Shown piece by piece: positions 29,062 to 45,791 of a stretch of DNA of 64,000 nucleotides. How positions within the stretch are numbered: the first letter of the stretch is position 1; the number at the start of each line of letters is the position of its first letter. The position numbers and the translations under genes are program-made. The stretch is from Candidatus Omnitrophota bacterium (GTDB lineage Bacteria > Omnitrophota > Gorgyraeia > B26-G9), in contig JAZDHZ010000034.1 of assembly GCA_043805415.1 (NCBI GenBank), positions 101,478-165,477 of the forward strand, given 5' to 3'. Under the pieces are notes generated by a model. That model searched no databases. It saw nothing but the letters and a program-made list of their open reading frames with translations, and was not told where the DNA came from.

Positions 29062-29073
29062 ATGTGGTATAAT
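29062..29073 (+). promoter_or_regulatory. extended -10 promoter TGTGGTATAAT (weak -35)
   Basis: TGnTATAAT-type extended -10 element about 185 nt upstream of the 29258 start. Confidence 0.4.
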
Positions 29074-29257
29074 TTACCAGCTTTTTTACGGTTTTATAAT
29101 AGTGCAAGTAATTGAATATTAAAAATTAACAGCATTTTATTGCTGAAATAGTGATTATTTTATATTGCTACTTGTAGTGATTCTAAAAAAAAATAGAATG
29201 ACGAAAAGGTAGTGATTTATTCATTTTTATTTATTTACTTACCAAAAGCAAGGGAAA

Positions 29258-32200
29258 ATGAATTATAAACAGAAATCAAAATTCAGGCTGATATTTAGAG
29301 TCATTGCCAGCGTGCTTTTACAGGCATTTTTATTTACAAATTTTGCCTGGTGCGGTGCTGATCAGTTTATTCAAGGCAATACTGTTTGCGCGCCGGCAAT
29401 TAGCAGTACAACTATTTCTCCCGCGATCCAAGTCACTGAAGCTTCAATTCAAACTCTTTTTGTTCAATCCGCCGCGTTCCAAATGGGCAAAAGAGCAGAG
29501 TTTAAAGGCCTTGATTCTTTAAAGCAGGCAGAAGTGGAAAATGCTTTAGGCGATAAATTTAGTTTAAGCCTGAATCTAAAAGGAAAGCTAAACACCGCGT
29601 CAGTTATTCAAAATATCGAAAAAAGAACAGATATCAAAGCGGATTATAAGAAGATCCTAAACGCGATGATCCTTGAATTCGGCAAACTGGATGTTAAGTT
29701 CTATTCATATGAGACATTAGTTGAGGACTTGTTCGGGTTTGCTTCTGCTGGCAATAAGATGATCGCGATTCATTCCTCGGTATTCAGTAATCCGATTGCT
29801 CAGACGCATGAAATCGGGGAATTCTTAGCGCAAGCAGGAATGCTGAATTTTTCGCTTGGCCAGGATGACCAGCTATTGATCAGCTTAAATGGCAGTTTAA
29901 TCGGCAGGATAAAATTATCGGAAGATGCTTTGGCAATCGCGAAGAAAGATCCGTCCAGTAACCATTATTTGCTGCGGGCTTTTCAACGGGAGGTTTTTCA
30001 GGATAAGGATCGGGCTTTAACCGCTGGGATTAAAAACAAGCAGGGGGATTTATCTTCCGCGATGAAAATTTTTCTTAAAACCATAAATGCTGAGACTGGA
30101 AACAAAGTTGAAGCAAGTATGTCTTTGTCTAAACTTAATGACCCGATGTTCGAGGCGCTGTTTAAAGATATTGAGTTTAATCGGTTTTCCGAAAACGATG
30201 CGGCAAAATTAAAGATAGCGATACTATTGCAGAATAACATTGCTATTGAGCCTATTGCTGAACCCTTGCTTCAAGAGTGCGGGATGCTGAATAAGGAATC
30301 CGCTGATCTTTATGAAACCATATTCCCGGCTGCGGGAACTCCTGGTTTTAGCCCAAAAAAATTATTCGCGAAAGAAAATGTTAATCCGGATAATCTGCAT
30401 CTTATCTTTGAATTAGCTAAGCGCTATAGTCCGATTAAAGCGTTTAGCGATAAGTTAGACAGAATCTACCGCGAGCTTGCCTTATACACATTGCCGGTAA
30501 GTCCGGGAGCAAGATATCATATATCTTTGCTTAAAGATCTAAACAGTATTTTATTGTCCGGAGGACGGATTAAAGAATCAAAGCACTCGCTTAGCGGTCA
30601 GGGTGTTTATTTCTTTGAAATGGGAAATTCCGGCTTAGTCAATGCGCAGACACGCTTAGCTGAGTTTTTCCCTTTTATCTCCAGCTCGCCGCATGATCTG
30701 GCAGATGCGGATTATGTGGTTAAGGCGTTCAGGCAAAAGATTGCCCGAGACGCGAAAGATAATGCCCGGATATTCCCGGTTGTAATCCAGGTTGCTGAGG
30801 ATATCCCGGCTGAAGCTGCGATGGGCTGGGCTTTTCGTGAGGATTATAAAAAGGCGGGAAAGCTTATCCGCGATGAACTTAATGCCCAAGAGTATGAATT
30901 TTTAATCAACCTGAATTATTTATATCTTAGCGAGAACCAAGCGGTTAAAAACCATTTGCTCGCGAAAAATATTATTAGAGAAGAAAACGGGATAATCAGG
31001 CTGGTTGATGCTTCGCGGGCGATTCAGGATGAAAACAAAAAGAATACGGGTTGGGCCAGAATGAGATTTGCTGACTTGCGTTATGAAGTGATCAATCTTT
31101 CCTACACAAAGCTGGATAGTGATATCCAGAAGCTTAGCGCCAAGATGGCTCAATTACTCCAGAATCTTCTCGCTGATAAAATGAGCGTATCTTCGGTTGT
31201 GGATACAGGCTCATCAAATCGCGGGCTTACTGTGGAAAATCCGGATTTTGATTTTCTGATTAAAATTAATTCCCCAGAGGATTTTACGGCAATTGTTAAG
31301 CTGCTGCTTGATGAAAAAATATTAGAAAATTTTCTCAAGGAGCATAAAGCTGCTTTTGAAGCGATCTATGGCGATAAGTCCGTGAGTATTGTCACCGAAC
31401 AGCCGCATGCCGTAGGCAAAGGCAATTTATATTTGTTTCCGTTTAAATTTGTCGCGGCTAACCGGATTGTCGGCGGGGTTGATTTTAATTTTTCCAAGCT
31501 TTCAGCGGGAAAAGCCGAGACTTTGAGCTATCACGAGACAGCGCGGCAGCAGCTGCAAGCCATACTGGATAAAGTTCCCGAAGCAGAACAAAAACAGCTT
31601 TCCCGCTATCTTGCCGGAGAAATTAAAACCCTTAAAAAATTAATTATAAATCAGGGTTTATATAAAGATAAGGATACAAAACGAAATAGATTTATCGGCG
31701 TGGCAGTAGAACAAATGATCTACAATCTCAGCGATTATCTGTCTATGCCAAGCAATATTTCCACTGCTGAAATTAAGAGCATATTTTCAATAAAAACCGC
31801 GCTTTATTTAATCAGCCGGATGGAAAGCGAAAGATTAAATGGTCTGTCATTTTCTCTGTATCAAAGAGCAAATGGAAGCGGGTTTTCTAATCAATCGGTA
31901 AAATACGATTTAAGGGATAATGAAAAATCAGTTATCCCTAAAGTTGGGACGGCTTTTGCCGGTTTTAAAGAGTTTTCAGAAGCGGAAAATGCCGGAGTGA
32001 AAAATAAAATTAAAGGATTAATAACTGATTTTATTAGCCGGCCGGGGAATAAGGTAAAAATTATTGAGTTTTTTGCCAGGTACAATAATGAAGTTGACGC
32101 GGCGATTGCTTTAGGTCAGGCGAAACCTTTTAGTAACTGGGAATTTTTTGAAAGATGGGAATTCACGCACCGGTTTTTTACTCTGCATAAAACAGAGATT

Positions 32201-32560
32201 GATATATTCGCGATAGATAAGACTGATATGTCTCAGGACGCGAAGCTGAAAATAGCGGAAATGATCAACGGATTAAAAGCCGGGATAACTGAGTCAATGG
32301 GTGTGAGTGAAGATAAAATTACCGGTCGGGAAATCACGCGGTGGTTTAAAACTCCTTCTTCGCGGAATAAGCAGCTGAGAGATTTTTATTTTCAATATGG
32401 GGCAATAACAGCAGAACCTATATCCATCCTGGGTTTTGCTGGGTTTTTAATGAATATTCCGGCATTGCGTTCGGCAGCTGATGCTGAGCGAAAAGCGGCG
32501 CCTTTAAGCGGTATTATAAACCGCAAGCCGCTCGAACAATTAGTCGGACAGTCAATATGA
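29258..32560 (+). CDS. giant secreted protein (1100 aa) containing a Pol-beta-superfamily nucleotidyltransferase motif. The N-terminal leader is paralogous to the next gene.
   Basis: Leader MNYKQKSKFRLIFRVIASVLLQAFLFTNFAWC. NTase signature VDTGSSNRGLTVENPDFDFLI (GS-x-G...DxD). The C-terminus ends in LVGQSI. Confidence 0.5.
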   Translation: MNYKQKSKFRLIFRVIASVLLQAFLFTNFAWCGADQFIQGNTVCAPAISSTTISPAIQVTEASIQTLFVQSAAFQMGKRAEFKGLDSLKQAEVENALGDKFSLSLNLKGKLNTASVIQNIEKRTDIKADYKKILNAMILEFGKLDVKFYSYETLVEDLFGFASAGNKMIAIHSSVFSNPIAQTHEIGEFLAQAGMLNFSLGQDDQLLISLNGSLIGRIKLSEDALAIAKKDPSSNHYLLRAFQREVFQDKDRALTAGIKNKQGDLSSAMKIFLKTINAETGNKVEASMSLSKLNDPMFEALFKDIEFNRFSENDAAKLKIAILLQNNIAIEPIAEPLLQECGMLNKESADLYETIFPAAGTPGFSPKKLFAKENVNPDNLHLIFELAKRYSPIKAFSDKLDRIYRELALYTLPVSPGARYHISLLKDLNSILLSGGRIKESKHSLSGQGVYFFEMGNSGLVNAQTRLAEFFPFISSSPHDLADADYVVKAFRQKIARDAKDNARIFPVVIQVAEDIPAEAAMGWAFREDYKKAGKLIRDELNAQEYEFLINLNYLYLSENQAVKNHLLAKNIIREENGIIRLVDASRAIQDENKKNTGWARMRFADLRYEVINLSYTKLDSDIQKLSAKMAQLLQNLLADKMSVSSVVDTGSSNRGLTVENPDFDFLIKINSPEDFTAIVKLLLDEKILENFLKEHKAAFEAIYGDKSVSIVTEQPHAVGKGNLYLFPFKFVAANRIVGGVDFNFSKLSAGKAETLSYHETARQQLQAILDKVPEAEQKQLSRYLAGEIKTLKKLIINQGLYKDKDTKRNRFIGVAVEQMIYNLSDYLSMPSNISTAEIKSIFSIKTALYLISRMESERLNGLSFSLYQRANGSGFSNQSVKYDLRDNEKSVIPKVGTAFAGFKEFSEAENAGVKNKIKGLITDFISRPGNKVKIIEFFARYNNEVDAAIALGQAKPFSNWEFFERWEFTHRFFTLHKTEIDIFAIDKTDMSQDAKLKIAEMINGLKAGITESMGVSEDKITGREITRWFKTPSSRNKQLRDFYFQYGAITAEPISILGFAGFLMNIPALRSAADAERKAAPLSGIINRKPLEQLVGQSI

Positions 32561-32602
32561 ATATTCTCTAGGGCAATATGATTGGGTAAATGGAACAAGA
32601 TA

Positions 32603-35600
32603 ATGAATTATAAAAAATCAAAATTCAGGCTAATCTTTAGAATAATCTCATTAGTGCTTATCCAGGCATTTCTGGTGCTTGATTTTGCCTGGGCAATAGG
32701 CGGAGAATTTCCTATTGCTGATAAAATTTCTCAGGCTGCTACGCTTGCCCCGAAAATTAGTTTAAACACTCAGGAAGTCTGGGATGCTTATGTTTACAGT
32801 TCGCAAAATTCAGCTAAGATCAATGAACTTTCCTTACCTTCTGATCAGCCGATGGTTAATATTCCCAACCAATCTCCCCTGATCAGCCGGAGAGCGTTTT
32901 TCAAAACTGTTGGGCAAAAGGTTATTGGGGCTGCCGCGGTATTAACCGGAGCGGATCTGATATTGTCGGCGCCGGCAGAAGCCAGAGACTTAACCGTGGC
33001 TTTAAGCGATTTAGTGATCAATTTTGATAAAGGGGTTGCTGAAGCGGAGTTAAATAAATATATCGCGATTATTGAAGCTCAGGGTTTTAAAGAGTTATAC
33101 AGTTTAGAAAAAAAACAAGCGCAGACATTAATCAGAATTAAGGGGTTATTCCCGCTGAACGCGGAAAAATTATCTTACGCGCTTAATGCTCAGGCTAAAG
33201 CCAGAGGTCTGGCCAAAGGGTTTGTGGTCACAGCTAGTGACGCGAGCTGGAAGCAATCGCTTACTTATCGGAGCATGCAGGCTTTTGCGAATAAAGTAGC
33301 GCGTCTTTCAGCCAGCCTGGGATTCGGGGAGATCGATTCTCCGCAGCTTATTGGGCTTTATGAGGGGATTACCTGGGTTGAGAGTAAATTTAACCAATGG
33401 GAAACCGATGCCCAGGGCAGAATCAGACCAGTAAGGTCATATACCAATGCTATCGGAGTTACCCAGGTTATAGAATCTCAGGCTGTTAAGCAGATTGCCA
33501 GGTGGATAGTAACGCATAAGGGTGGAATATCCCGCTACGCGGAAATCATGAATGAGCTGGAAAGAATGATTTCCTCTGATAGTGAAAAGCTAAAGAAATC
33601 ACTCAAGGCGAATAAGAAATTCGGGGAAGAAGCCGAAGCCCTGAAACAGTTTAATGTCTATGCTGATTTCGCGGCTTATAAAAATGCCGGATCAGATATT
33701 GAAAAACAAAAACAGATAATTCAACGAATTCACAGAAAGATCAATAGTAATCCTAAGCTTATCGGCGTGAATTTATATTACGCGCTTGCTGTTTGGCAGT
33801 ATTTACAAAACAGGAATAATCTGCGAGCGGGAGTTACCGCTGAGCTTGCCGAATCAATGGGGCAAACCGGACAAGGGCTGACCAGAAAAAATCTTCCGCT
33901 TATTGAATCCGGTTCCGGGGCATATCAGCCAATGGATCTGGAAAAAGCCGGCTTGCAGTTTGAGAGTGATTATTTCCGCTTAAATCTGCTTTATCAAATG
34001 ATTAATCCCGAGAAGATTGCTGAGCTTTTGCAAGGCGCGGAAAGTAAAATATTAGTCAACACCATGGAATACTTATCGCGGCAGATGATGACAAAAATAG
34101 GCAACCAAAAGCTTGGCTATACTTATCTTACGCTGAACTGGGATCGATACCGCCGCCTGGAACTAAGGAAAAATAAAAATAATCAATATGAGTTTACCGA
34201 AAGGCCTTTAAGTTATTTTCAAAATAAGCCTAATGGTTTTTCCGTGAGTCTTGCCGCGGCAGCTTCATATAATTCCGGGACTGGCAGTGTGGACGATGCT
34301 TTGCTGAATTTTGGTAATGCCGTAGACGCGAATAATCTTCCCTTATGGATTAAAAATATGATCGGAGCCAATCCCCAAAATATTCGGGAGCCGATAAATT
34401 ATTTAAGGGTTTTTCTGGAAGATAAGTTTAATAATACCGGAGATCTCTCGGCCCAAGAGCAAAAAATTAAAAACGAGCTTATTGCCGAACGCTATAAACG
34501 CGTTTATAAAATCCAAGACCGATTGCTGGAAAAAAGAGCTTTAATCCACAAAAACAAGGTTCGGATATACGCGGCTTATCGGCGCGATGATGGTTTTGAT
34601 TATAAGCTGGCTGCCTGGGTTGCCCAGATCGCGGGCAGTGATTATGTGGATAGTTTTTTAAGAACCCATGGATTGGATAAAAAATGGCAAGAGGAAATTC
34701 TTAAATCTTCCCAGACACTTGATATTTTAGCACCGGCTTTGGCAGATGTGAATTCGCCGGGATATGCTGCCGCGGTAAATATCCGGCGGTATTTAGATTC
34801 AAAACAGCTGGCTTCTTTGGCTAAGCGGCAAGAAGCCTTTAAGTCTAAAGAACAGGCCCGGATCGCGAGAATTGAACTGGCTAAACAAATATCTAAGGAA
34901 AAACAATGGCAGAAAACCCTGGAGGGAATGACCAGCTGGGCAATGCGTTCCACGGTCGGGGTTGCTTCGCTTGGCGCGGCCGGCGCGATTGCCTGGATTA
35001 TAAACCGCAGGGTCAAGCTGGGTAAAAAACCAGTGCCTTCGCTTATCTATCGGCTGCCATTGCAGGGTTTTTGGATTCTGGGATTTGTTACTGTCCGGCT
35101 GTTCGCGATAGTTGGAAAAATTCTGTTTGGAACCGGTAAATATGTATTCAGCTTTTTTGCTAAAGCAAAACCGCGGATAAATAAACCAAGAAGCGCGCTT
35201 CTTGCCGATCAAAAGGTAGTTAGAAATAACCGGGTTAAACAAGCGGAAAACAGATATAAAAATAAGAACCGCTTTTTTTCAATAGCTAATTTAAAAAAAC
35301 TGATTCTGGGATCAATCTTACTGGCAATAATTGCCTGGCCTTTTGCTTCCCCGGCTTTTTCTCACGCGTCGCAAAAGCAGGCACAAGCTCCTCCGGCAAT
35401 TAGTTTAAGCCAAGAATTTAAAAAAGGCTTAATTGAAATCAGTAAGAAAAGTGACCATAAGCAGCTGAATGCTCAGGGCGAGCTTACCACAATAAAAGCT
35501 AATTTAAAAAAGAATCTTGAATTCAGCAATAGCAAAGCCCGGGAAAGGGTAGAGCAGATCAATCAGTTAGCGGAAAGAAATTGGCAAAAAGCGTATGTTA

Positions 35601-38600
35601 ATGGCGAATTAGATGAATACATAACAAAAAGAGGGCAGTCAGAAGATGCTCTTGCGATTGGCAAGGCGCTGTTTATTTTGCAAAGCGCTGCTCCGGAAAT
35701 TTATCAAGGTTTAAAAAAATATAATGCTTCTATATATCTGGCAGAGATCCCCTTCTATGGTTACGCGCGCGGTTCACGAGTATTTGGGCTTGGCGGCAAA
35801 CCAATGGTATTTGTAAATAAAGATTTTCTGAATAATCCTTTCAAAATCGCGCTTGTTTTATCTCACGAAGGTCATCACGCGATTCTTTTGCCCAAAGATT
35901 TACTGGAATCCGCGCTGCGGTATAATTTTTTTACTTTTATCAGGGATGTATTGTACAGTATTCCCCAGGGGGAAAAAGAAGCTTTCGAGATCCAGGCGGG
36001 AGTGGCCAGAGTTTTTTATATTGAGCCGATAAAAGGAAATATGTCTTATGACCCGCTTGATGTGGAAATTGCTTATGGTAGTCAGAAATGGCAAATAGTT
36101 GGGTTGGATATTTTAGGTACCGGCTTGTTCAATGTTATTCCTTTGATTGCCGGATGGTTAATCCTAAAGTTTTTTATGAATAGCAGCCGCGCTGGAAAAA
36201 GCCGAGATTATCAAAGATCAGGCAGCGGGGGATTGTCTAATCTGATAAACAGCAATTCAAGAAATAACAAGCGTCTGATTAGAAAAGGACGCGGTAAACG
36301 CAAAGGGAATTTCTTTTGGTCAATTATTTTAATCCCTTTGCTTGCTTTTCAATTCAGCAGTTTTCTTAGTCCCGCGATTACTCAAGCAAGTGATGTTTTT
36401 ATCCAGCCTCAGGAGAAAACAGAAATAACCGAGTATAAAAATGAACAGATTATAAATCCGATCCTTGGCACTGATCTTAAAGTAAACTCCCATTTTGGCC
36501 CACAGGAAGGAAAGCATAATAACGCGTTAGCTGATTGGTCCGAGGCGGTGATCAGAGGAGTTATTCAGCCCAACGCGGATATAATCCATGTTGATTTTCA
36601 TGCTGATGATTCCGGCGCGGTAATGGACGCGGATATGCTGGCCTTGAACGAAGTTAAGAATTTAAAAACTTCTCAGGAAAAAATCCAGGCAGTGCGGGAT
36701 ATCGCGGCTCATCTGAGAATAGATTCGTTTTATTACCCGGCTTATTTAACCGGACCAACCGGTCAATCAATATTGGGCACAACCTTTTGGGTTCGTCCGG
36801 AAGCAGAATGGCAGGGCGCGGCGAAAGAGCAATATATTGTCAGTGCTCCCTATGGAACGTTCCCCACGGATCATCCTGAGAAATATCCAAATGACAAGAG
36901 GATCAAAAGGTATGAGCTTAATGCCGATGATTTATCTTTAGTCGGGAAAAATGCTCAGTTAAAAAATGGGTTTATTCTGGACATTGATCTGGATTATTTT
37001 ACTTTGCATCGGGAAGATATGAATTGGGTTTATATGCGGGAGCTGCTTGAAAGAAAAGATGAAGCTTCTCAGAAATTAGCAAAGTCGATTCTTAAGACAG
37101 TCCACTATCAGCCGACCAGGCAGCAGCTGCAAAAAAATATTGATTTGTTTATTGACCAGCTCGCGAAGCTGCATGAACGCGGTATAGACCCGGGAATCAT
37201 TTCTGTTTTTGAATCACCGAATTTTACAGCTTATGCTGATGCTAAATGGGTAAATGACCAGTTAGTAAAGGGGTTCAAAGCTATTTACGGCAAAGGCTCT
37301 GCTTTAGCCGCGAAAGACCAGAAACCAAAGAGCGCGGCAAGCTCTGGCTGGAAAAAAATCTCAATCATGGGATTGGTGTCTGTAATCTCCGCGTCTTTTG
37401 CTAATTTGTTTTCCGTGGCTAATCTCTGGGCCATGGAAAATGGAGCGGATAAGGCTTTTGCTTCCTCTGATTTTAAATCAATAGTAACCTACCTTATCAC
37501 AATCGCCTTAATTGGCTTTTTAGTTAAATCGGGATTAAAAGCGCTTAGTTTAGCTAAACAAAAAAACGCGGAACAGCAGGCCGCGGTGATTGTTCCCAGC
37601 CAGGCGGCTTTGGATAAATTAAAAAAATTAGACACTGACATCAGCGCTTTATTTGCTCAAGGGAAAACTCAGGTTATTATCGCCTTTGACGGTCCCTCCG
37701 GCGCGGGCAAGACAACATTGGCTAATTATATTAAGGCAGTTGGTATTGCCGGAATACAGCCATCTGAAATACAGGTATTGTCGCGTGATGATTACGCGGT
37801 TGGCGGTGATTATAATGAGGCGAATATCGTGATTTTAGAAAAAATCTGGCATCGCGGAAAATTAGTTATTGTTGAGGGCAATGGAATCCAGTGGGCCAGT
37901 GCGGTATTAGCAGCAGATGCCGCGTATGCTAATCCGGATATATTTGTTAAAATAACCGCTGCTGAACAGCTGCGCAAACAAAGGCTATTAGAAAAAGGCT
38001 TGTCAGAGTCAGCGGCAAGTGAGCGGATTAGAACAGCATCTGGTCCTGATTCCGGTTTGTTTGATATTATTATTCAAGATCCTTATATCGAGGTTAACAG
38101 CTTGCGCAAGTCCGCGGAATATATAAAGGCTGAGAGCATATTGCGTTCATATCCTAATGACTCCGGCCTTGCTTTAATTCGTGAATTTGTCTTAGATCAA
38201 ATGCTTAGTTCTGATCGGCGCGGTATTATTGTTTATCATAATGAGCGCCATCTTAATGAGTTGTTTGAGTTTTTTGATGCAATATCAAAGCATTTACCGT
38301 TTAAAAATAAAGCCAGCGCCGAGCGTTTGATCCGCATGGCGATTTATCTGCATGATCTGGGCTACTTTTATTCAGAAGATGGATTGCTTATTCCTGGGCA
38401 TGAACAAAGAAGTAAAGATGAGGTTCTTGAATTTGTTAAGAAAAATCCCGGAATATTGTCCGCGGTTGAAGTCCAGTCGATTATGTATCTGATTGATAAA
38501 ACGCAGCTTAAAACCGGTGACGCGATTAAAAATGAAATCAGCGATGATAATAAAACCTATGACTTGCTGGATCGAATTAATAACGCGCAAGAATCAGGTT

Positions 38601-41542
38601 TAACTGCTGAGGATCAACAGTTTTTAGCAAGTTTTATGGAAAAAAACTTTCCGGACGCGAATCCGCGGAATCCGCGAGACCGGCAGCTGGTGCTGGATAC
38701 TATTTTGGGTGGCAAAGCCTTGGCTTTAGCGGATATCTGGGGCCAGGACCAGACATATCTTTATCAGGTTGCTTTATTAAGTCAGGAATTCCGTTATGAT
38801 AAACAGATAATGCTGAATAATAATGATCCTAACGCAGCCAAAAGCCCGGCAGCTATGAGCAATCTGGAACAGGTCGGGGGAAGCAGCGGATTCCAAAGCT
38901 TTGCTCAAGACATGAGGTTTGTTTTCTTTTTAAATAGCGCGGATTATCCGATGCTGGGCATGCAGCAGTATCTTGACGCGGAACAAAAGGAAAAACAAGC
39001 AAAAGGGGAAAAAGAAAAAGCGCTTATTGACCGCAGAACAGCGATGATTGAAAAGAGCAATCAGGTTCAATCTTTAACCAATGTTTTGACCAGCGGAGTT
39101 GATGAAAACCTTAATATCATCGGCCTGGCTAAAGACACTGATCAGCTTCCTCAGGTTATAGCTTTAAAAGAATTTATCGATGAAGGCCTTGGATTAGGCA
39201 TATACGATGACGCGCAAAAAGCGCAGTTAATCTCGGAAATAAACAGCAGAAACGGACTGATTTTCCGGGGAATAGACAATCAGTTTGATCTAGCGGTAGA
39301 CGCTGCTTACATCGCGGAGCTTGCTCCGACTGTTGATGATATATTAATCAGTTCAAAATTTGCTGAAATTTTAAGTGAGCAGGAATTAGCGGAATTGACT
39401 TCTTCCTGGGAGATTAAGAAGTTTTCTCCTGGTCAAGCGATTGTCCAACAGGATATTCCTGATGCGCAAGGGGTTTTTCTGATCCTATCCGGAAATCTGG
39501 ATGTTTTTGTCAATGGATATCATGTGGGGGAAATTCCTCAGGGTGAGCTGTTTGGGGAAATGTCAGTGCTTGATAGTGCTTTGCGCAGCGCCACTGTAAG
39601 AGTTTCTCAGCTTGCCAGCCAGCAGGCGGTAATCGCGGAAATACCAGCGCCTGTATTCACTAAATTATTCGGGGCAAACCGACAGCTGAAACAAAAGATT
39701 AAAGCCCTGATTCAGACAAGAAAAGAAAATTCGCGAAAGGTTTTGGACGCGGAAGAAGAAAAAGATGATGAAGTAAAATTAAAACATAAATTTGAAAGCG
39801 GCCAGCTGGATACAGTGGTTTTTGTTGATGTTGATCTGATGCGTTTAACCAATCAGTATGTTGCCAAGAAAAATGTGAATGTTTTGCTTGATGTTCTGGA
39901 AACAGAATTTGAAAAAGTGATAAAAGCTCTGGGCGCTGAAAATGCCGTAAGCCTGCGCCGCGGAGGAGATGAATTTATTCTGGCAATTAATTCCCGCGAA
40001 AATAAGCAGCAAGCGATTGATATTGCCGCAAAACTTAAAAATAATGTTCAGAGCGCGAAATTTTCGCTTGCTTCAATCGGAACTGACAGGCTTTCTCAGG
40101 AAAGAATCGCGGAAATCGAAAGTTTTGGATGCGGCATAGACACGATCGGTAAGCATAATATTATAATTGTTGGGCAGAAAACAGGCGGTAAAACAGGCCG
40201 GGCTTGTGTGCAGGAATTTCTCGATACAGTCAATGCCATTAGCAGCTTAAAAAATCCGGAAAACCCGGAAGCGGAAGTTTTAAGCATTCAAAGCTCTTGG
40301 CTGGACCAGCCGGCTGTTAACAATGAAGTTAGTTTTACCTTGTCAATCGGCTTGGCAAATGTATCTGAAATTGACAATGTGCCTGGATCTAATCTTTATG
40401 AAAAAGCGCGCAACTTCGCGGCGCAAAGAAAAGATAAATCAAAAGAAATATTTAAAAAACTCGGAGATGGACATATTGAAGCTGTTTCCAGTTTCGCGCC
40501 CTTGGGCGTGGCTGGGGAGAGTATTCTTTTGACTGAGCAAGCAATTGCTGAGCACGCAGATTTCGAACAGCTGCAGGCTGAAGCTAATCGCCTGGAAGCT
40601 GAGCAAATGGAAGCTGAGCAAATCCCGACAGGCATCAGGCATAAGTTTGCCGAAGGTGAGGAGGTATTGTATTTTTCTTCAGAAAATGCCGCGCGGAGTC
40701 ATCTTAACGCGATGCGAGACAATCAGGAACTTAATGCGGCGATTGCTTTTTCGCTGCAAGGATTGGGTTATTATGATCAGGAAGGAAAGATTGATCAATA
40801 TAAAGCGGAATACTACACTTCCCCTGGGGCAGTTAAAGATAATCGGATAGATATCCGTGATTTTAAAGTGGTTAATGAAGCGCATGGCTATGTGGCGGGT
40901 GATGAAATTATCGCGCGCCTGCGCATCGGCGCGATGCGCTTTGCCAGGTTATTTGAGAACTTTGATCTGGTATTTGCCCGCGGCCCTCCGGCAGGACCAA
41001 ATGGATTTCTTATTCCAAAAACAAAACAAGCCGCTGAAATGAACCCAACAGAAGTGCAGGTAATGTTTGTTGAATATATGCGGCAAATAAGAGATTATTT
41101 TAATAAACCGAATGAATCGGCTGTAAAAGTCGGGCAGTTAAGAGTTGTTTGGGATCGAGTTAGCCAAGAGGATAAAAATATCGGAAATGTGATCGAGCGG
41201 ATTAGTCAGACACGCGCGGTTTATGAACAAAAAACTAAACCGAAAAAAGGCAGAAACATGGTTTTAAGATATGATCCTAGTATCCCGGATAAGTGGAGCT
41301 CATTAGCGGAACTTAATGCCCCGGATGCTGTCGCGCAGCTTGAGAATCTTAAAATTATATGGCAGCAAAATAAGCAGCAGTTAGATGCTTTTGCTAATTC
41401 CCGGAAAGTTAGCGGAACCCTGAGACTTGGCACAAAGATTGATTCCATAGATCCTGGATTGCGCGGACCTGCGTTTTCTCTGCAAGGTGATAATCTTAAT
41501 CAGCAATCAAAAAATATCTCTCTTCTGGAACAAGCGATTTAA
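32603..41542 (+). CDS. mega-protein (about 2980 aa): conserved leader, internal twin-arginine-like motif, lytic-transglycosylase-like segment, at least 6 TM helices, HExxH motif, arginase/deacetylase-like motif pair, P-loop nucleoside-kinase-like domain, HD domain, cNMP-binding domain, GGDEF domain (RRGGDEF) and a degenerate GGDEF domain
   Basis: ATG at 32603 (MNYKKSKFRL...); the listed ORF uses a TTG at 32582. Motifs: ITWVESKF..SYTNAIGVTQV; LVLSHEGHHAIL; IIHVDFHADD and FILDIDLDYF; IIAFDGPSGAGKTTL; IYLHDLGYF; GELFGEMSVLD..RSATVRV; VSLRRGGDEFILAI; IDIRDFKVVNEAHGYVAGDEII...FARGPPAG. The C-terminus ends in LLEQAI. Confidence 0.6.
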   Translation: MNYKKSKFRLIFRIISLVLIQAFLVLDFAWAIGGEFPIADKISQAATLAPKISLNTQEVWDAYVYSSQNSAKINELSLPSDQPMVNIPNQSPLISRRAFFKTVGQKVIGAAAVLTGADLILSAPAEARDLTVALSDLVINFDKGVAEAELNKYIAIIEAQGFKELYSLEKKQAQTLIRIKGLFPLNAEKLSYALNAQAKARGLAKGFVVTASDASWKQSLTYRSMQAFANKVARLSASLGFGEIDSPQLIGLYEGITWVESKFNQWETDAQGRIRPVRSYTNAIGVTQVIESQAVKQIARWIVTHKGGISRYAEIMNELERMISSDSEKLKKSLKANKKFGEEAEALKQFNVYADFAAYKNAGSDIEKQKQIIQRIHRKINSNPKLIGVNLYYALAVWQYLQNRNNLRAGVTAELAESMGQTGQGLTRKNLPLIESGSGAYQPMDLEKAGLQFESDYFRLNLLYQMINPEKIAELLQGAESKILVNTMEYLSRQMMTKIGNQKLGYTYLTLNWDRYRRLELRKNKNNQYEFTERPLSYFQNKPNGFSVSLAAAASYNSGTGSVDDALLNFGNAVDANNLPLWIKNMIGANPQNIREPINYLRVFLEDKFNNTGDLSAQEQKIKNELIAERYKRVYKIQDRLLEKRALIHKNKVRIYAAYRRDDGFDYKLAAWVAQIAGSDYVDSFLRTHGLDKKWQEEILKSSQTLDILAPALADVNSPGYAAAVNIRRYLDSKQLASLAKRQEAFKSKEQARIARIELAKQISKEKQWQKTLEGMTSWAMRSTVGVASLGAAGAIAWIINRRVKLGKKPVPSLIYRLPLQGFWILGFVTVRLFAIVGKILFGTGKYVFSFFAKAKPRINKPRSALLADQKVVRNNRVKQAENRYKNKNRFFSIANLKKLILGSILLAIIAWPFASPAFSHASQKQAQAPPAISLSQEFKKGLIEISKKSDHKQLNAQGELTTIKANLKKNLEFSNSKARERVEQINQLAERNWQKAYVNGELDEYITKRGQSEDALAIGKALFILQSAAPEIYQGLKKYNASIYLAEIPFYGYARGSRVFGLGGKPMVFVNKDFLNNPFKIALVLSHEGHHAILLPKDLLESALRYNFFTFIRDVLYSIPQGEKEAFEIQAGVARVFYIEPIKGNMSYDPLDVEIAYGSQKWQIVGLDILGTGLFNVIPLIAGWLILKFFMNSSRAGKSRDYQRSGSGGLSNLINSNSRNNKRLIRKGRGKRKGNFFWSIILIPLLAFQFSSFLSPAITQASDVFIQPQEKTEITEYKNEQIINPILGTDLKVNSHFGPQEGKHNNALADWSEAVIRGVIQPNADIIHVDFHADDSGAVMDADMLALNEVKNLKTSQEKIQAVRDIAAHLRIDSFYYPAYLTGPTGQSILGTTFWVRPEAEWQGAAKEQYIVSAPYGTFPTDHPEKYPNDKRIKRYELNADDLSLVGKNAQLKNGFILDIDLDYFTLHREDMNWVYMRELLERKDEASQKLAKSILKTVHYQPTRQQLQKNIDLFIDQLAKLHERGIDPGIISVFESPNFTAYADAKWVNDQLVKGFKAIYGKGSALAAKDQKPKSAASSGWKKISIMGLVSVISASFANLFSVANLWAMENGADKAFASSDFKSIVTYLITIALIGFLVKSGLKALSLAKQKNAEQQAAVIVPSQAALDKLKKLDTDISALFAQGKTQVIIAFDGPSGAGKTTLANYIKAVGIAGIQPSEIQVLSRDDYAVGGDYNEANIVILEKIWHRGKLVIVEGNGIQWASAVLAADAAYANPDIFVKITAAEQLRKQRLLEKGLSESAASERIRTASGPDSGLFDIIIQDPYIEVNSLRKSAEYIKAESILRSYPNDSGLALIREFVLDQMLSSDRRGIIVYHNERHLNELFEFFDAISKHLPFKNKASAERLIRMAIYLHDLGYFYSEDGLLIPGHEQRSKDEVLEFVKKNPGILSAVEVQSIMYLIDKTQLKTGDAIKNEISDDNKTYDLLDRINNAQESGLTAEDQQFLASFMEKNFPDANPRNPRDRQLVLDTILGGKALALADIWGQDQTYLYQVALLSQEFRYDKQIMLNNNDPNAAKSPAAMSNLEQVGGSSGFQSFAQDMRFVFFLNSADYPMLGMQQYLDAEQKEKQAKGEKEKALIDRRTAMIEKSNQVQSLTNVLTSGVDENLNIIGLAKDTDQLPQVIALKEFIDEGLGLGIYDDAQKAQLISEINSRNGLIFRGIDNQFDLAVDAAYIAELAPTVDDILISSKFAEILSEQELAELTSSWEIKKFSPGQAIVQQDIPDAQGVFLILSGNLDVFVNGYHVGEIPQGELFGEMSVLDSALRSATVRVSQLASQQAVIAEIPAPVFTKLFGANRQLKQKIKALIQTRKENSRKVLDAEEEKDDEVKLKHKFESGQLDTVVFVDVDLMRLTNQYVAKKNVNVLLDVLETEFEKVIKALGAENAVSLRRGGDEFILAINSRENKQQAIDIAAKLKNNVQSAKFSLASIGTDRLSQERIAEIESFGCGIDTIGKHNIIIVGQKTGGKTGRACVQEFLDTVNAISSLKNPENPEAEVLSIQSSWLDQPAVNNEVSFTLSIGLANVSEIDNVPGSNLYEKARNFAAQRKDKSKEIFKKLGDGHIEAVSSFAPLGVAGESILLTEQAIAEHADFEQLQAEANRLEAEQMEAEQIPTGIRHKFAEGEEVLYFSSENAARSHLNAMRDNQELNAAIAFSLQGLGYYDQEGKIDQYKAEYYTSPGAVKDNRIDIRDFKVVNEAHGYVAGDEIIARLRIGAMRFARLFENFDLVFARGPPAGPNGFLIPKTKQAAEMNPTEVQVMFVEYMRQIRDYFNKPNESAVKVGQLRVVWDRVSQEDKNIGNVIERISQTRAVYEQKTKPKKGRNMVLRYDPSIPDKWSSLAELNAPDAVAQLENLKIIWQQNKQQLDAFANSRKVSGTLRLGTKIDSIDPGLRGPAFSLQGDNLNQQSKNISLLEQAI

Positions 41543-41630
41543 ATTATTCCTAATTTATAAGTAATTACTTGCCAAGCACTTACAATCCTGGAAAACCCTG
41601 CGCCAAAACCCCTGATTTGCTTGTAAAACC

Positions 41631-41649
41631 ATAAGCTTTATGGTATACT
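41631..41649 (+). promoter_or_regulatory. sigma70-type promoter TTGTAA-17nt-TGG-TATACT
   Basis: Near-consensus hexamers with 17-nt spacer, about 75 nt upstream of the 41723 gene. Confidence 0.55.
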
Positions 41650-41722
41650 TAAAACCTTTTTAAATTAATACAAAAGTGTGTAACATCTTTATTTACTATT
41701 AGTTAATGTTTAATGCGAGGAG

Positions 41723-43429
41723 TTGATTTTGAACTTAAAATTTCTTAAATGCGCAATGATTTTATTTATGGTTTTTCTCCTGAATACAAAAAATTGCTTT
41801 GCTGATTTGCTTTCTGAATCTTTTCTTAGCCCGGTATCAAATATTGATCTGGGATCATTGCAAAAAACATTTACCTATTTAGTAAATGAGCAAACTTATT
41901 CAGAATATAAAGCAATCTTTGAAATCAATGATCAGGATAAACCGCGGCGCGATCTTAAAGCGCGGGATTTAGAAGATTTTTTACAAGTCATAACCGATAT
42001 TCGCTTGATCCTGGAAATGTTTTCCCAGGGAAATGCGTTTAAAGGAATTATGAACCAGGCAGATAAAGAAACAATAGATGATTTCCTGAGCAATCATCCG
42101 GATGAGATTGAGCTGCTGAAAGATTCAGGAATTAAACCTGTTCTTAGCGCTATCCTTGAGCGCGCTTTGGCGCAGCTGGCTGCAAGGCAAAGAGCGGTCC
42201 CGTCTTTGGCTGAAACCATGTATAAGGAATTAATTTTTAGATTAAAAACAAAGCTGGAAACAGCCGCGGGAATGCTTAAGACAGGCATGCCGATTAAATC
42301 AATCAATTTTAATCAGGAAATACTTTCCTATCTAAAACCAGAAACCCTTAACCGGATAATCGAAAACATTAACTGGCAAAATCAAGACCCTGATGATTAT
42401 AGCGGGCAAAGAAAGATTATTTTAAACCTGGATAAACCAATTGTTTTGGAAAACGGTAAAATAATCAACTCAATTGAAATCAAAGGAGTTGTTTACCGAA
42501 AAGATGAGGTTGCGGTTACTCCTTTACAGGAGAGGTTTAACACAATAAAAGTTCCAAGATTAGACAAAAACAATCTAACTGCTTTGAAAAAAAGAGTACA
42601 TTTAAAAGGCGGAATGCCTTTTGCCGCGGCTAAAAGAGAATATATGATTTTAGAAAAACTTTACGCGCAAGGTAATTACCAGTATGATTATCCCATCGGA
42701 TACGGCAGGTATAAGAATTATACGTTCCAGGGCAAACAATTTGGATTTATCATCACAGGTGTGGAAAATTCAAGGCGAACAAGAATGGGCGACTGGTTTT
42801 TTGATAACTATCAGGAGATTTTTGATTTACTCACGATTGATAAAGTCAGATTCGCTAATTTAGCAGTAGAACTCTTTGAGGTTCATGAAACTTTTCTCAG
42901 GCATTATGGCCGGGAGTTGCGGAGGTTTCATGACAGCGGATTTTATCATGGTTATCCGCATACTTTAAATGTAAGCTGGGATAAAGAATTTAAAAATATC
43001 GTGCTTAATGATTTTGAAGCCAGCAAGCTGATTTCCCATTTGCCTGTTGAAAAAAGAGTTGGCTACCGATTGATAGATCTAAGCTCGGCTTATGCCCATT
43101 TTATTTACTTTCTTACCAATGATCGGGATTTAATGGAACTAGCGGCGTTTTCCGAAGGCATGAATCATCTGAATAATCCTTTTCGCTATTTTCTTCAGGG
43201 GTATTTTGGCAATGATTTGCCAAATTTTAATTTTGATGGTTTTATGAGTGAAGCTATTTATCCGGCGGTTGTGTCCGGGGTAGATGTGATTAATGACCTG
43301 GATCAGGATATTGTGAGTAAACTTTTGAATATTGAAGGCGCGGATTATAAGCGAGTTAAGTATATTGATCAAATTGTTTTTGATGCGCAGGGCTTTGTAA
43401 ATGAACTTGCCTGTCAAGAAGCGATCTAG
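41723..43429 (+). CDS. hypothetical secreted protein, 568 aa (TTG start; the alternative TTG at 41729 is better spaced from the GAGGAG RBS). A faint kinase-like pattern (HGYPHTLNV...LNDFEAS) is not convincing.
   Basis: Signal peptide; the C-terminus ends in CQEAI. Confidence 0.4.
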   Translation: MILNLKFLKCAMILFMVFLLNTKNCFADLLSESFLSPVSNIDLGSLQKTFTYLVNEQTYSEYKAIFEINDQDKPRRDLKARDLEDFLQVITDIRLILEMFSQGNAFKGIMNQADKETIDDFLSNHPDEIELLKDSGIKPVLSAILERALAQLAARQRAVPSLAETMYKELIFRLKTKLETAAGMLKTGMPIKSINFNQEILSYLKPETLNRIIENINWQNQDPDDYSGQRKIILNLDKPIVLENGKIINSIEIKGVVYRKDEVAVTPLQERFNTIKVPRLDKNNLTALKKRVHLKGGMPFAAAKREYMILEKLYAQGNYQYDYPIGYGRYKNYTFQGKQFGFIITGVENSRRTRMGDWFFDNYQEIFDLLTIDKVRFANLAVELFEVHETFLRHYGRELRRFHDSGFYHGYPHTLNVSWDKEFKNIVLNDFEASKLISHLPVEKRVGYRLIDLSSAYAHFIYFLTNDRDLMELAAFSEGMNHLNNPFRYFLQGYFGNDLPNFNFDGFMSEAIYPAVVSGVDVINDLDQDIVSKLLNIEGADYKRVKYIDQIVFDAQGFVNELACQEAI

Positions 43430-43625
43430 GCTCAAATATTAAAATTTTTAAAAAAATTGTAATCTTTATACTTATTCAAAAGAGGTTGTTTTTTTTAGTG
43501 GCTGTTCTGCCGCGGGTAGTGAGCTTATTGAGTTTTTTGTGGCTCAATCAATATAGTCGAAGTATTTATCTTGCCTTGTTGTTTCTCCCTTGCTAAAATG
43601 ATATTTATCAAGGAGGACACTAAAA

Positions 43626-45791
43626 ATGCCTTTATATAATTCCCAGCAAAAAGTACAATCCGGAATGCCTTTGGGCGGTATCGGCGCCGGCAAATTCGAA
43701 ATCACGCCTTATGGGACCATTGATTATATAACCTATCAAAATAACTGGAGCCGGCCGATAGCCAATCAAAGTAATAAAGCCCAAGGTAAGGCTCTGGGAA
43801 TTACGGGTTTTCACTTTGCCTTATATGTTAATACGCAGGCAGCGGCGATCTGCAAGCTTCTGCAAACCGAACCCATCAGCGCTTATAATACAATTCAAGC
43901 CATAGATTTCTTTGGAAAGTTTCCCTTGGCGCGGCTGGTATATAAAGACGATAATCTGCCGGTGGACATATCGCTGACTGTTTATTCCCATCTTATTCCC
44001 GGGGATATTAAAAACTCCAGCTTGCCAGGGGCGGTGTTTGAATTTGATCTTAGCAATAAACTGGATAAAAATATTGAAGTGGCAATAATGTTTATCGGCC
44101 GAAATCTTGTTTCAAGAAATTCCGTGGGCAGAATTAATAATTTTAAGCAGGAACATGATTTGGCTGGTCTGGAGTTTACCCACACAAAACCTTTAAGCCA
44201 TGATGAACAAGCTGGAGATACTTTTATCTGTTTGCCCAAAGACATTGGTAAAATCAGTTTTTTAAGCGGCTGGAACATGCAAAAGGAAAACTTTATTTTT
44301 GAGCCAAAAGTCGGGCTGGATGCTTTGGATTATTTTAGCAGTCATGGCAGATTGCCGAATATTAAAATGAAAGAACCGACCCAAAGCCAGAGCATTGAAT
44401 TAGGCGGGGCATTAGCAGTTAGTTTTAATTTAGCGGCGCGGCAGAATAAAAAAGTTCCGTTTATTTATTCTTGGCATTTCCCCCAGCATTTTCAAGGCCA
44501 TGTTTATGAAAAGTATTTTAAAAAAAGCCGCGATGTCGCGGTATATATTAATCGCAACAAAGATGAGCTTTTTAAAAAAACCGCTTGCCTGCCGAATATA
44601 TTGGAGCGCATGGGCTTAGAAGACTGGCTGTCTGACGCCTTATTAAATAATCTATATACCTTGTTTTCTTCGAGCTGGCTTACCCGCAAAGCTGACTTTA
44701 CCATGTATGAGGCCCCGATAATCTGTCCTTTAATGGGTACGCTGGATGTTTATTTTTACGCTTCAACGGCAATTGGTTTATTGTTTCCTTCATTAGATAA
44801 AAAAGCATTGAGTTTATTTAAACAGCATATTCGTAAATCAGGATATGTGCCGCATGATATTGGTTTAGAGCGGATTGATCTTCCTTCTAATGGGACTACG
44901 ATGGTATTGTGGAAAGATTTAAATCCCAAGTTTATTCTTTCCTGTTACCGCGCTTTCTGCGAGACAAAGGACCTTAAGTTTTTAAAAGAAGTTTATCCGG
45001 TTATGAAAAAAGCCTTTGAATATAGTTTAAAACTGGATAAAGACGGAGATGGTTTGCCGGATAATGAAGGTTTTGACACCACCTTTGATACTTGGGGATT
45101 TAAAGGCGCCAGTGCTTATAATGGCGGAGTGTTTCTGGTCAGCCTTTTGGCTTTAAGACGCGTGGCTGAGCAGTTTAATGATAAAAAACTGGCGAAAAGA
45201 TGCATTGATCTATTTAGCAAAGGAAGAAAGAGTTTTGAGCAAAAACTCTGGAACGGCAAATATTATATTACTGCCAAAAGCGCGGAGCAAAGTTATGAAT
45301 CCTGCATTCTTGGCCAGCTGACGGGCCAATGGTACGCTTATTTACTCGGCCTGGGCAGAATTTTCCCTGAAGAAAATATTAAAAGCGCGATAAAGTGGAT
45401 TTTAAAATTAAATGAAAAAGATTCAAAATACGGCGCGACCAATTCAGTATTTATGGATAAAAAAAGAGATCTGGAATCTTATCACTCCCAGAATATCTGG
45501 CCTGGAGTGTGTTATTCTTTTGCTGCTTTAGCCATATATGAGGGATTTGTTAAAGAAGGTTTGAAATTAACTAAAAAAGTCTGGAATACAATATCAGTAA
45601 AAAATAAAAATCCCTGGAACCAGTCGGATGTGATTATTGCTAAAGACGGCAGTTATGGTTTTGGCGATTATTATATGCGCAATTCAGTTATTTGGGCTGT
45701 GCTGATTGCTTTGGCTGAGAATAATCCCGCAGTTGCCAGCGGAATAGCTGAGATCCGGAAAATGGTTCAGTCTTCAGAGCCAAAAGGATAG
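43626..45791 (+). CDS. glycoside hydrolase family 116 protein (GBA2-type beta-glucosidase/glucosylceramidase-like)
   Basis: AAGGAGG RBS. The N-terminus QSGMPLGGIGAGKFEITPYGTIDYITYQNNW matches the GH116 N-terminal domain signature. Large C-terminal (alpha/alpha)6-like region. Confidence 0.7.
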   Translation: MPLYNSQQKVQSGMPLGGIGAGKFEITPYGTIDYITYQNNWSRPIANQSNKAQGKALGITGFHFALYVNTQAAAICKLLQTEPISAYNTIQAIDFFGKFPLARLVYKDDNLPVDISLTVYSHLIPGDIKNSSLPGAVFEFDLSNKLDKNIEVAIMFIGRNLVSRNSVGRINNFKQEHDLAGLEFTHTKPLSHDEQAGDTFICLPKDIGKISFLSGWNMQKENFIFEPKVGLDALDYFSSHGRLPNIKMKEPTQSQSIELGGALAVSFNLAARQNKKVPFIYSWHFPQHFQGHVYEKYFKKSRDVAVYINRNKDELFKKTACLPNILERMGLEDWLSDALLNNLYTLFSSSWLTRKADFTMYEAPIICPLMGTLDVYFYASTAIGLLFPSLDKKALSLFKQHIRKSGYVPHDIGLERIDLPSNGTTMVLWKDLNPKFILSCYRAFCETKDLKFLKEVYPVMKKAFEYSLKLDKDGDGLPDNEGFDTTFDTWGFKGASAYNGGVFLVSLLALRRVAEQFNDKKLAKRCIDLFSKGRKSFEQKLWNGKYYITAKSAEQSYESCILGQLTGQWYAYLLGLGRIFPEENIKSAIKWILKLNEKDSKYGATNSVFMDKKRDLESYHSQNIWPGVCYSFAALAIYEGFVKEGLKLTKKVWNTISVKNKNPWNQSDVIIAKDGSYGFGDYYMRNSVIWAVLIALAENNPAVASGIAEIRKMVQSSEPKG

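Follow-up and report, generated by a model that had tools for sequence, protein, structure and literature searches.

How could one bacterial gene come to encode a wall-cutting enzyme, several membrane helices and a stack of nucleotide-signalling domains, and what would its product do? We address this question for a gene in a 64,000-nucleotide stretch of DNA from a Candidatus Omnitrophota bacterium (assembly GCA_043805415.1, contig JAZDHZ010000034.1, positions 101,478 to 165,477; hereafter the window). A coding sequence of 2,979 amino acids (aa) plus stop occupies window positions 32603..41542 on the plus strand, the strand of all features of this protein given below. We find that it is a single genuine Omnitrophota gene, and we propose with moderate confidence that the best explanation of its product is a membrane-held mosaic, in which envelope hydrolases and a cytoplasmic second-messenger switch are carried on one chain.

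The frame is open without stops from 32582 to 41542. An initial annotation of the sequence had described one uninterrupted open reading frame (ORF) of 2,986 aa starting at 32603; the uninterrupted frame stands, but the length of 2,986 aa fits a count from the upstream TTG and not that start. The first ATG lies at 32603 (MNYKKSKFRLIFR...) and yields 2,979 aa up to the stop at 41542. It is the biologically sensible start and agrees both with the start of the upstream paralogue, MNYKQKSKF, and with the NCBI protein MFH1062776.1 ('MAG: UPF0489 family protein [Candidatus Omnitrophota bacterium]', MAG denoting a metagenome-assembled genome), which is encoded on a 169,549-bp contig and is 100% identical over the full length of the ATG form. 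GC content is even along the ORF (~40–42%) with no compositional break, and we infer that chance is ruled out as the origin of an 8.9-kb open frame, stops making up ~6% of random codons at ~42% GC. A search of 5.8 billion proteins returned only four relatives, one of which shares its architecture end to end. This orthologue (P0002; 2,855 aa) is 52% identical across 98% of the query, with colinear modules and with identity spread over all of them, and its gene sits on a contig (locus L001) of the independent Logan assembly SRR21677147. The helix and linker segments at the module junctions are conserved between the two proteins, and partial versions were found in further samples. The ORF is thus borne out as one real gene, with an orthologue of the same domain order, and all nine sequence motifs quoted in the initial annotation are present at the residues implied.

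By fold and catalytic motifs, the N-terminal module is a divergent family-1 lytic transglycosylase (LT). It spans aa 126–780 (32978..34942) and comprises a ferredoxin-like N-terminal subdomain, a family-1 LT core with a helical insertion of ~215 residues, and a helical C-terminal extension. Fold searches returned a goose-lysozyme-like, mainly helical fold. In the family alignment, conserved residues follow in the order E260-S261, G285-V-T-Q288 (within SYTNAIGVTQV, aa 279–289), N501-x-x-x-G505-x-x-Y508-L and S555-Y-N-S-G559, blocks which we take to be the four family-1 LT motifs of Slt70-type enzymes, the second and fourth being the GLMQ-like and AYNxG motifs; the insertion lies between the second and third of them and is mostly absent from one family member (P0016). 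The candidate catalytic pair Glu260-Ser261 (WVESKF; 33380..33385) is invariant in alignments A1 and A2 and conserved in every sequence of alignment A4 that covers the region. The Pfam SLT model matches 8 of the 15 LT family members (best E 7.9e-8), and these matches, together with the fold search, confirm the LT-like segment that had been read from the motifs. Profile searches of the module against PDB gave nothing significant (Slt at E 0.84), and a match to Arf6 was discarded as spurious. Searched against 1.84 billion cluster representatives, the module profile matched 19 proteins at E <= 0.001, and for 14 of these E was <= 1e-30. One further locus (L004), from a Candidatus Omnitrophota MAG and carrying full-length P0003, turned up when 185,579 species genomes were scanned for a pattern based on a four-sequence alignment. 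As far as these searches reach, the family is rare and confined to Omnitrophota. Set against the family-1 LTs Slt70, MltC and MltE (PF01464, GH23), the module here adds the insertion, the N-terminal subdomain and a C-terminal extension of ~200 aa, falls below the Pfam threshold in the window protein, and is always preceded by a twin-arginine-like motif, the arginine pair of which is lost in P0003 and P0005.

The C-terminal block joins a P-loop module, an HD-superfamily module, a cyclic-nucleotide-binding (cNMP-binding) domain and a pair of GGDEF domains. The cNMP-binding domain (aa ~2244–2387; 39332..39763) exceeds its Pfam threshold (PF00027, 37 bits; cutoff 27.5) and matches PKG and PKA regulatory domains in PDB (E 5.6e-13), in agreement with the original call. 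Its phosphate-binding cassette (FGEMSVL..RSAT; FGEMSVLDSALRSAT) is intact in the window protein and conserved in P0002. The PADLOC model PycTIR matches aa 2261–2387 at E 6.7e-16 and 56.5 bits, above Pfam's 37 bits, and a pyrimidine cyclic nucleotide is a possible ligand. In a Pycsar effector the cNMP-binding domain is joined to a TIR or membrane effector, and a pyrimidine cyclase is encoded alongside. A reading as a Pycsar or other defence system was rejected, as PADLOC matched the cNMP domain only; the protein contains no TIR domain, no Pycsar cyclase lies nearby, and the neighbouring genes gave no PADLOC matches.

Directly downstream, the first GGDEF domain (aa 2389–2641; 39767..40525) retains the active-site motif RRGGDEF (aa 2452–2458) and the upstream metal-binding Asp (DVD, within FVDVD). 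Its guanine-recognition motif is divergent, with MRLTNQ..AKKNVN at the position of FKxxND..GHxxGD, and no RxxD I-site was seen in the domain. Alignment by hhalign with a canonical GGDEF protein encoded in the window itself gave E 1.3e-3 over 118 columns, and the corresponding domain of P0002 scores 30.5 bits, above the Pfam cutoff. The second GGDEF domain (aa 2679–2899; 40637..41299) is degenerate: DIRDFKVVNEAHGYVAGDE is intact, and GPPAGPNGF (with RGPPAG at aa 2793–2798) stands in place of GG[DE]EF. Against the same window protein it aligned at E 1.1e-4, with ARGPPAGPNGFLIP placed on ARYGGEEFAIILP and GPPAGPNGF on GGEEF; NCBIfam GdpS matched at E 0.0039 and Pfam GGDEF at E 0.15. The guanine-recognition motif is near-canonical in this domain (FKVVNE..HGYVAGD), which keeps the DxxDFKxxNE..HGxxxGD half of the signature, and a PDB profile search aligned one half of DosC to one GGDEF domain of the chain and the other half to the other. 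The pair is 57–69% identical across the window protein, P0002 and P0005, and the alignments uphold the assignment of one canonical and one degenerate GGDEF domain. As in tandem active and degenerate GGDEF proteins and in cNMP-regulated diguanylate cyclases, a cNMP sensor stands directly upstream of a GGDEF domain, and the second GGDEF, having no GG[DE]EF, keeps its recognition motif. Unlike in those proteins, the signature halves are split between two domains, no EAL or HD-GYP partner is present, and the stack is fused to envelope hydrolases. Degenerate GGDEF domains can serve as GTP-binding regulators in cyclic diguanylate (c-di-GMP) signalling.

The HD-superfamily module (aa 1855–2240; 38165..39322; YHNERH ... 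YLHDLGY ... GHEQRS) is all-helical in its structural model and by fold nearest to class-I cyclic-nucleotide phosphodiesterases, which refines the HD phosphohydrolase assignment made from YLHDLGY (aa 1915–1921). The residues Y-H-N-E-R-H and H-D are present and fit the phosphodiesterase signature. In distinction from class-I 3',5'-cyclic-nucleotide phosphodiesterases, the second His of HDxxH is replaced by Tyr (HDLGY), and a Pfam scan of the module gave no PDEase_I match. Other HD families (PPX/GppA, HD-GYP) score nearly as well in the fold comparison, and a word-indexed protein search with the module returned no match. The P-loop NTPase module (aa 1650–1860; 37550..38182) carries the Walker A motif GPSGAGKTT (FDGPSGAGKTT, aa 1695–1705) and is nucleoside/nucleotide-kinase-like at best. 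Matches to NCBIfam PRK09270 and PRK06547 are weak and far below their cutoffs, PDB matches are limited to the P-loop, and no kinase family was matched beyond Walker A; the kinase-like Walker A proposed earlier is supported only as a generic P-loop. In P0002 this module (aa 1603–1762) is ~50 residues shorter, the missing part holding several Arg (..QLRKQRLLEKGLSESAASERIR..).

Two further hydrolase-like modules lie between the LT module and the signalling block. The first (aa 919–1164; 35357..36094) is a candidate gluzincin-type metallopeptidase. Its residues H1088, E1089, H1092 (SHEGHH, aa 1087–1092) and E1124 are unchanged in all three sequences compared, and P0002 and P0015 contain the module as well. 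The HExxH motif noted earlier is therefore conserved, but the assignment stays at the level of the motif, the DUF5700 match being below threshold. The second (aa 1260–1587; 36380..37363) is a UPF0489 or peptide-arginase-fold module. Scanned alone it scores 31.2 bits against PF12640 (cutoff 27; 25.3 in the full-length scan), it matches NCBIfam pept_arginase at E 6.6e-11 (42 bits against a cutoff of 350), and it aligns with the OspR structure (PDB 8brp) at E 4.9e-6. The Mn ligands of OspR are H12, D39, H41, D43, D165 and D167 (PMC10028609); all six align with H1305, D1331, H1333, D1335, D1460 and D1462 of the window protein, within HVDFHADD (aa 1329–1336) and DIDLDYF (aa 1460–1466) for the last five, and Glu11 of OspR aligns with Lys. 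The arginase-like fold first suggested by these two motifs is thereby supported and narrowed to the peptide arginases (OspR, FlmR/OhkR), with which the module shares a significant sequence match and the aligned ligands. Known peptide arginases are stand-alone maturases in biosynthetic gene clusters of peptides that are made on ribosomes and modified after translation (RiPPs) (PMC10028609), whereas here the module is internal, between hydrophobic helices. Among the neighbouring genes (leader/tail proteins described below, GH116, HemN-like radical SAM, TPR/peptidase) no RiPP precursor or other maturase was recognised. Only the window protein keeps all six ligand positions; most are lost in P0002 (aa ~1250–1540) and in the paralogous relative P0006 (aa ~925–1200), where HVDFHADD is replaced by LVSFGEMN or FVLVGNPG, which suggests that the domain may be a pseudo-enzyme in the relatives, or dispensable.

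Segment-wise BLAST and comparison of the sequences themselves show that these modules recur in other arrangements. P0005 combines the leader and LT module with the same GGDEF pair; P0011 the LT module with the same HD module, a cNMP-binding domain and other C-terminal sequence; P0015 the LT and HExxH modules; P0006 the LT module, a UPF0489-like module and other sequence; P0003, at locus L004, the LT module and a different HD domain; and in P0004 and P0007 ~1,000–1,900 residues of other sequence precede the LT module. The fullest combination seen is that of the window protein and P0002. Judged from these sequences, the gene appears to have arisen by shuffling of modules that are found in other combinations in related Omnitrophota proteins.

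How would such a chain be held in the membrane? Hydropathy gives 8–9 hydrophobic stretches (aa 14–32, 107–125, ~783–801, 820–843, 895–918, 1165–1188, 1237–1259, 1588–1608 and 1627–1649), in keeping with the at least six transmembrane helices counted earlier; the stretch at ~783–801 was spotted by eye and lies below the threshold of the hydropathy scan. The stretches at aa 783–801 and 820–843 (34949..35131) are followed by a Lys/Arg-rich linker of 51 residues (aa 844–894; 14 K/R, 2 D/E), and the helix at aa 1165–1188 (36095..36166) by a second such linker of 48 residues (aa 1189–1236; 14 K/R, 1 D/E). The helices at aa 1588–1608 and 1627–1649 (37364..37549) are separated by a short acidic loop and stand ahead of the P-loop module.

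We propose that these several helices hold the mosaic protein in the membrane, where the LT module would cut peptidoglycan glycan strands and the hydrolase modules would face the envelope, acting on the cell's own wall or on the wall of a host or prey cell to which it is attached. The ~1,330 residues at the C-terminal end (P-loop, HD, cNMP, GGDEF pair) would lie in the cytoplasm. There, c-di-GMP synthesis by the first GGDEF domain would be adjusted when the sensor domain binds a cyclic mononucleotide, the degenerate second GGDEF domain would bind nucleotide as a regulatory partner, and the HD domain, being phosphodiesterase-like, would reset the cyclic-nucleotide signal. Tethered on one polypeptide, the enzymes that cut the wall would share their site with a second-messenger switch. 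The enzymatic activities, the control that a cyclic mononucleotide would exert on c-di-GMP output and any coupling to wall cleavage are all predicted from the sequence. If the proposal holds, peptidoglycan cleavage, cyclic-mononucleotide sensing and c-di-GMP synthesis would be physically joined in a single chain, which would offer a compact handle on the control of wall remodelling or attack in ultra-small, host-dependent Omnitrophota.

Several observations weigh against this proposal. In the window protein, Pfam SLT scores 15.5 bits against a cutoff of 21.3, Pfam HD 15.1 against 22, and Pfam GGDEF 22.9–23.0 against 23.8 for the first GGDEF domain, which is near its cutoff; the matches of the HExxH module to DUF5700 ('putative zinc dependent peptidase', E 0.005) and of the P-loop module to AAA_18 (E 3.2e-4) are likewise below threshold, and the HD model is of moderate confidence (predicted local distance difference test, pLDDT, 66). 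The UPF0489 and P-loop modules may be inessential to the shared function, ligands and lid having been lost in the orthologue. The main problem is topological. We used a plain helix count from hydropathy together with the positive-inside rule and assumed the LT module to be outside. When six helices are counted as spanning (783–801, 895–918, 1165–1188, 1237–1259, 1588–1608, 1627–1649), both K/R linkers fall inside, and the HExxH module, the UPF0489 module and the C-terminal signalling block all fall outside; for the signalling block to be inside, one of the six stretches must therefore not span the membrane. Treating aa 820–843 as an extra spanning helix makes the C-terminus cytoplasmic, but moves both linkers outside. 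For P0003 and P0005, whose sequences were read by eye, the same plain count places LT outside and HD or GGDEF inside. Hydropathy-based topology is unreliable for such proteins, and implausible localisations also occur in the giant proteins of the phylum (West-Roberts et al. 2023, 10.1101/2023.11.21.568195). We consider that the signalling block probably lies in the cytoplasm; the sidedness is deduced, and the helix count complicates the proposed coupling of envelope and signalling functions.

The segment ahead of the LT module adds to this difficulty. At aa 95–125 (32885..32977) it has the parts of a twin-arginine signal (consensus S/T-R-R-x-F-L-K), namely the motif SRRAFFK (aa 95–101), a weakly hydrophobic core (VIGAAAVLTGADLILSAP) and an AxA site (AEA). 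RRxF[FLI] stands directly ahead of the module in 8 of the 10 family members with upstream sequence, and is kept even where the LT module starts near residue 400, 1,060 or 1,960 (P0009, ~aa 385–401; P0004, ~aa 1030–1058; P0007, ~aa 1935–1962). Because the motif travels with the module wherever the module sits, we assign the segment to the LT module. The twin-arginine-like motif noted earlier is thus present and conserved, but not at a position where a canonical signal for twin-arginine translocation (Tat) works: it lies at aa 95 here and at ~390 to ~1,950 in the relatives, away from the N-terminus that a Tat signal requires, and since a leader resembling a signal peptide of the general secretory (Sec) pathway precedes it, it lies across the membrane from where canonical Tat recognition takes place. 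In dual Sec/Tat membrane proteins the helices that Sec inserts ahead of the twin-arginine motif are even in number (Tooke et al. 2017, PMC5449189). The window protein resembles these in having an internal twin-arginine motif and a weakly hydrophobic helix before a large folded domain. It differs in that one Sec-like stretch precedes the motif, which consequently faces the wrong side, no cofactor domain follows, more helices and domains come after, so that the motif is not ahead of the last helix, and the RR pair is dispensed with in two family members. Canonical Tat export and a dual Sec/Tat model were both rejected on these positional grounds.

Could the chain instead be cut into separate proteins? 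Both middle modules are introduced by helices with the layout of a signal peptide, that is, a basic run, a hydrophobic core and SHA or TQA: aa 895–918 (35285..35356; ending ..ASPAFSHA) and aa 1237–1259 (36311..36379; ..FSSFLSPAITQA). A polyprotein cleaved by signal peptidase or by its own zincin-like module at AWA|I, AEA|RD, SHA|SQ and TQA|SD would release a soluble LT and a metallopeptidase, together with an arginase-like enzyme and a signalling protein anchored in the membrane, and the fusion would serve co-expression only, with no mechanical coupling. The internal stretches each carry small residues at -3 and -1 and are conserved in P0002; weak echoes of the leader motif TLSPxLxI (APPAISL, LSPAIT) follow both introducing helices, as if leader-bearing proteins had been fused; and the modules occur separately in other proteins. 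Signal-anchors inside multi-spanning bacterial proteins normally escape cleavage, however, and the single-ORF layout is conserved in the orthologue and in the relatives. We therefore regard processing into separate products as possible but unlikely, and prefer the intact, membrane-held chain.

A second alternative starts from the ends of the protein. The leader (aa 1–31; 32603..32695) has the shape of a Sec signal peptide, with a basic n-region, a hydrophobic core and AWA; it is common to other window proteins, and BLASTP ties the first ~70 aa to three of them, as the description of a conserved leader had implied. It is followed at aa 47–54 by TLAPKISL (32741..32764), a copy of the class motif TLSPxLxI, and the chain ends in the class tail LLEQAI (aa 2974–2979; 41522..41539). 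Nine plus-strand ORFs of the window (starting at 3027, 6256, 11120, 26245, 29258, 32603, 41723, 48991 and 53147) have a signal-peptide-like leader and, 10–20 residues later, a position-specific TLSPxLxI. Of the 36 ORFs of at least 150 aa, exactly these nine end in a ..[AS][IV] tail (GQAI, GQSI, EQAI, DASI, QEAI, EHSI, LNSI and DGSV, for example). With a strict motif pattern, the 2x2 table of motif against tail is 8/0/1/27 in the window (Fisher p = 3e-7). The pairing also occurs in six L001 ORFs (4257, 8441, 10001, 18783, 20294, 21679) and in both L004 ORFs (540, 6653), and relatives carrying the lytic module share the tail despite differing C-terminal domains. In most class members the N-terminal hydrophobic stretch is the sole one. 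Their cargo includes GH77 4-alpha-glucanotransferase, an alpha-glucan water dikinase Ig-like domain, S-adenosylmethionine (SAM) methyltransferase and GNAT acetyltransferase, and members with cytoplasm-type or cofactor-dependent domains, each with one signal-peptide-like N-terminal stretch, lie at window positions 6256–11184, 11183–15142, 53147–55489 and 3054–3809. The literature on long proteins of the phylum reports the same domain sets inside giant Omnitrophota proteins. No Pfam or NCBIfam model matches the leaders or tails, a literature search found no description of such a leader/tail signal, and a word-indexed protein search with a 10-sequence leader alignment gave no match.

Motif and tail may define a lineage-specific sorting signal. 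In that case an entire class of exported proteins would bear it, many of them with normally cytoplasmic enzymes. The fuller proposal, that leader, TLSPxLxI and '..Q[AS]I' tail form an undescribed Omnitrophota sorting or assembly signal and that the window protein is a polyvalent effector of the class, its LT opening a host or prey wall and its phosphodiesterase, cNMP and GGDEF modules acting on the target's second messengers outside the producer's cytoplasm, is one that we hold to be improbable. The leader/tail signature and the localisation paradox are the most promising threads that emerge from this locus.

An effector of this kind would be exported whole, signalling block included, and would act on or in an attached host or prey cell: the LT would breach the wall, the zincin-like module might cut the chain, and the phosphodiesterase, cNMP and GGDEF domains would disturb the second messengers of the target. 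This is what the naive helix count and the positive-inside rule predict for the C-terminus, and the leader and tail are shared with proteins that carry GH77, methyltransferase or GNAT domains behind a single N-terminal stretch. Giant proteins of the phylum are reported to pose this puzzle as well, and the Omnitrophota are described as ultra-small bacteria that are predators or depend on a host (10.1101/2023.11.21.568195). In polyvalent proteins of phages and conjugative elements, moreover, GGDEF domains are combined with lysozyme and zincin-peptidase domains in chains that are delivered into target cells (Iyer et al. 2017, PMC5512222). The window protein likewise has many unrelated enzyme domains in one chain, wall-lytic and zincin-like modules and, as in some polyvalent proteins, GGDEF among them; it differs from those proteins in its many membrane helices, in the chromosomal and syntenic position of its locus among housekeeping genes rather than on a mobile element, and in that no DNA-targeting or anti-restriction domains were found in it. 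No delivery machinery was identified, the count for P0003 and P0005 places HD or GGDEF in the cytoplasm, and the topology on which the argument turns is of the unreliable, hydropathy-based kind. We judge the exported effector to be rather improbable, below the polyprotein, and retain the cytoplasmic signalling block of the membrane-held mosaic.

The chain might also be a scaffold of enzyme relics, a structural or adhesive component of the envelope in which at most the LT is active. Many domain matches are below threshold; the second GGDEF has no catalytic motif and the first has a divergent base-recognition motif; orthologues are without the UPF0489 metal ligands and the P-loop lid; and Tyr replaces the second His of HDxxH. 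Against this, the diagnostic residues are intact here in the LT (E260-S261), the HExxH module with its distal Glu, UPF0489 (six ligands), the cNMP cassette and the first GGDEF domain, and the identity of the GGDEF pair in three proteins indicates strong constraint; we find a relic scaffold doubtful. Weakest of all, the artefact of adjacent genes joined through misassembly or a missed stop, which the metagenomic source of the genome might suggest, was rejected and is very unlikely, because an independent assembly preserves the module order over 98% of the protein, between the same flanking genes, the junctions are helix and linker segments shared by the orthologues, partial versions exist in further samples, and GC content is even over the ORF.

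Where, then, does the membrane-held mosaic stand among the long proteins of the phylum? These are reported to have signal peptides, many helices, divergent SLT, GGDEF and HD domains, and recurring 'signal-transduction' and 'sugar-metabolism' domain sets (10.1101/2023.11.21.568195; 10.64898/2026.06.07.730766). The giant 'Archaeovorins' among them are defined by a length above 10,000–30,000 aa and a SecA_DEAD domain (10.1101/2023.11.21.568195; 10.64898/2026.06.07.730766). The window protein shares with them the phylum, a signal peptide, helices interleaved with divergent SLT, GGDEF and HD domains, and the localisation puzzle of cytoplasm-type enzymes predicted outside. It falls outside that type, being 10–50 times shorter, with 2,979 aa and no SecA match; SecA_DEAD, C39 and S8 peptidase domains were not detected in it, and its module set and order are not described in those papers. 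A literature search found no description of the domain combination. The statement that the architecture was unrecognised is fair, with one other end-to-end match in 5.8 billion proteins, but the modules recur and fit the published picture of Omnitrophota. The architecture is thus new in detail and very rare, and is a small-scale variant of the long mosaic Omnitrophota proteins. At ~3 kaa (thousand amino acids), the protein is of a size that can be expressed and dissected, which the 30–150 kaa giants are not, and because it is small and has the same mosaic logic and localisation paradox it could be a tractable model for them.

The genomic surroundings are those of a bacterial chromosome, with nearly all genes on the plus strand. 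Housekeeping genes were recognised by eye from N-terminal translations (SMC-like, SmpB, glutamate racemase-like and others), SmpB being backed by Pfam in the syntenic locus L001. The neighbours of P0002 in L001 match those in the window: an opposite-strand GAF-GGDEF gene, a TPR/Peptidase_MA_2 protein and a HemN-like radical SAM protein, and, further downstream in both, GH116 and SmpB. The mega-gene lies within a run of leader/tail-class genes, to which no function was assigned, ending at the GH116 glycosidase and SmpB (window 26245–45791; L001 4257–25810). Scans for promoters and terminators were uninformative, the promoter predictions being at chance level and the terminator-like sites falling mostly within the ORF. 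The flanking anchors are syntenic between the window and L001, but the two loci have different numbers and kinds of class genes between these anchors, those of L001 including Trypsin_2-like and NTP_transf_2-like members. The GAF-GGDEF gene of the window (21658–22851, minus strand) contains an in-frame TAA at 22381–22383 within an A-rich run (..AAACAAATTTAAAAAAACG..), where its L001 orthologue reads through with Gly at the stop position; the interrupted gene is either a pseudogene formed by nonsense mutation or the product of a homopolymer-associated sequence error.

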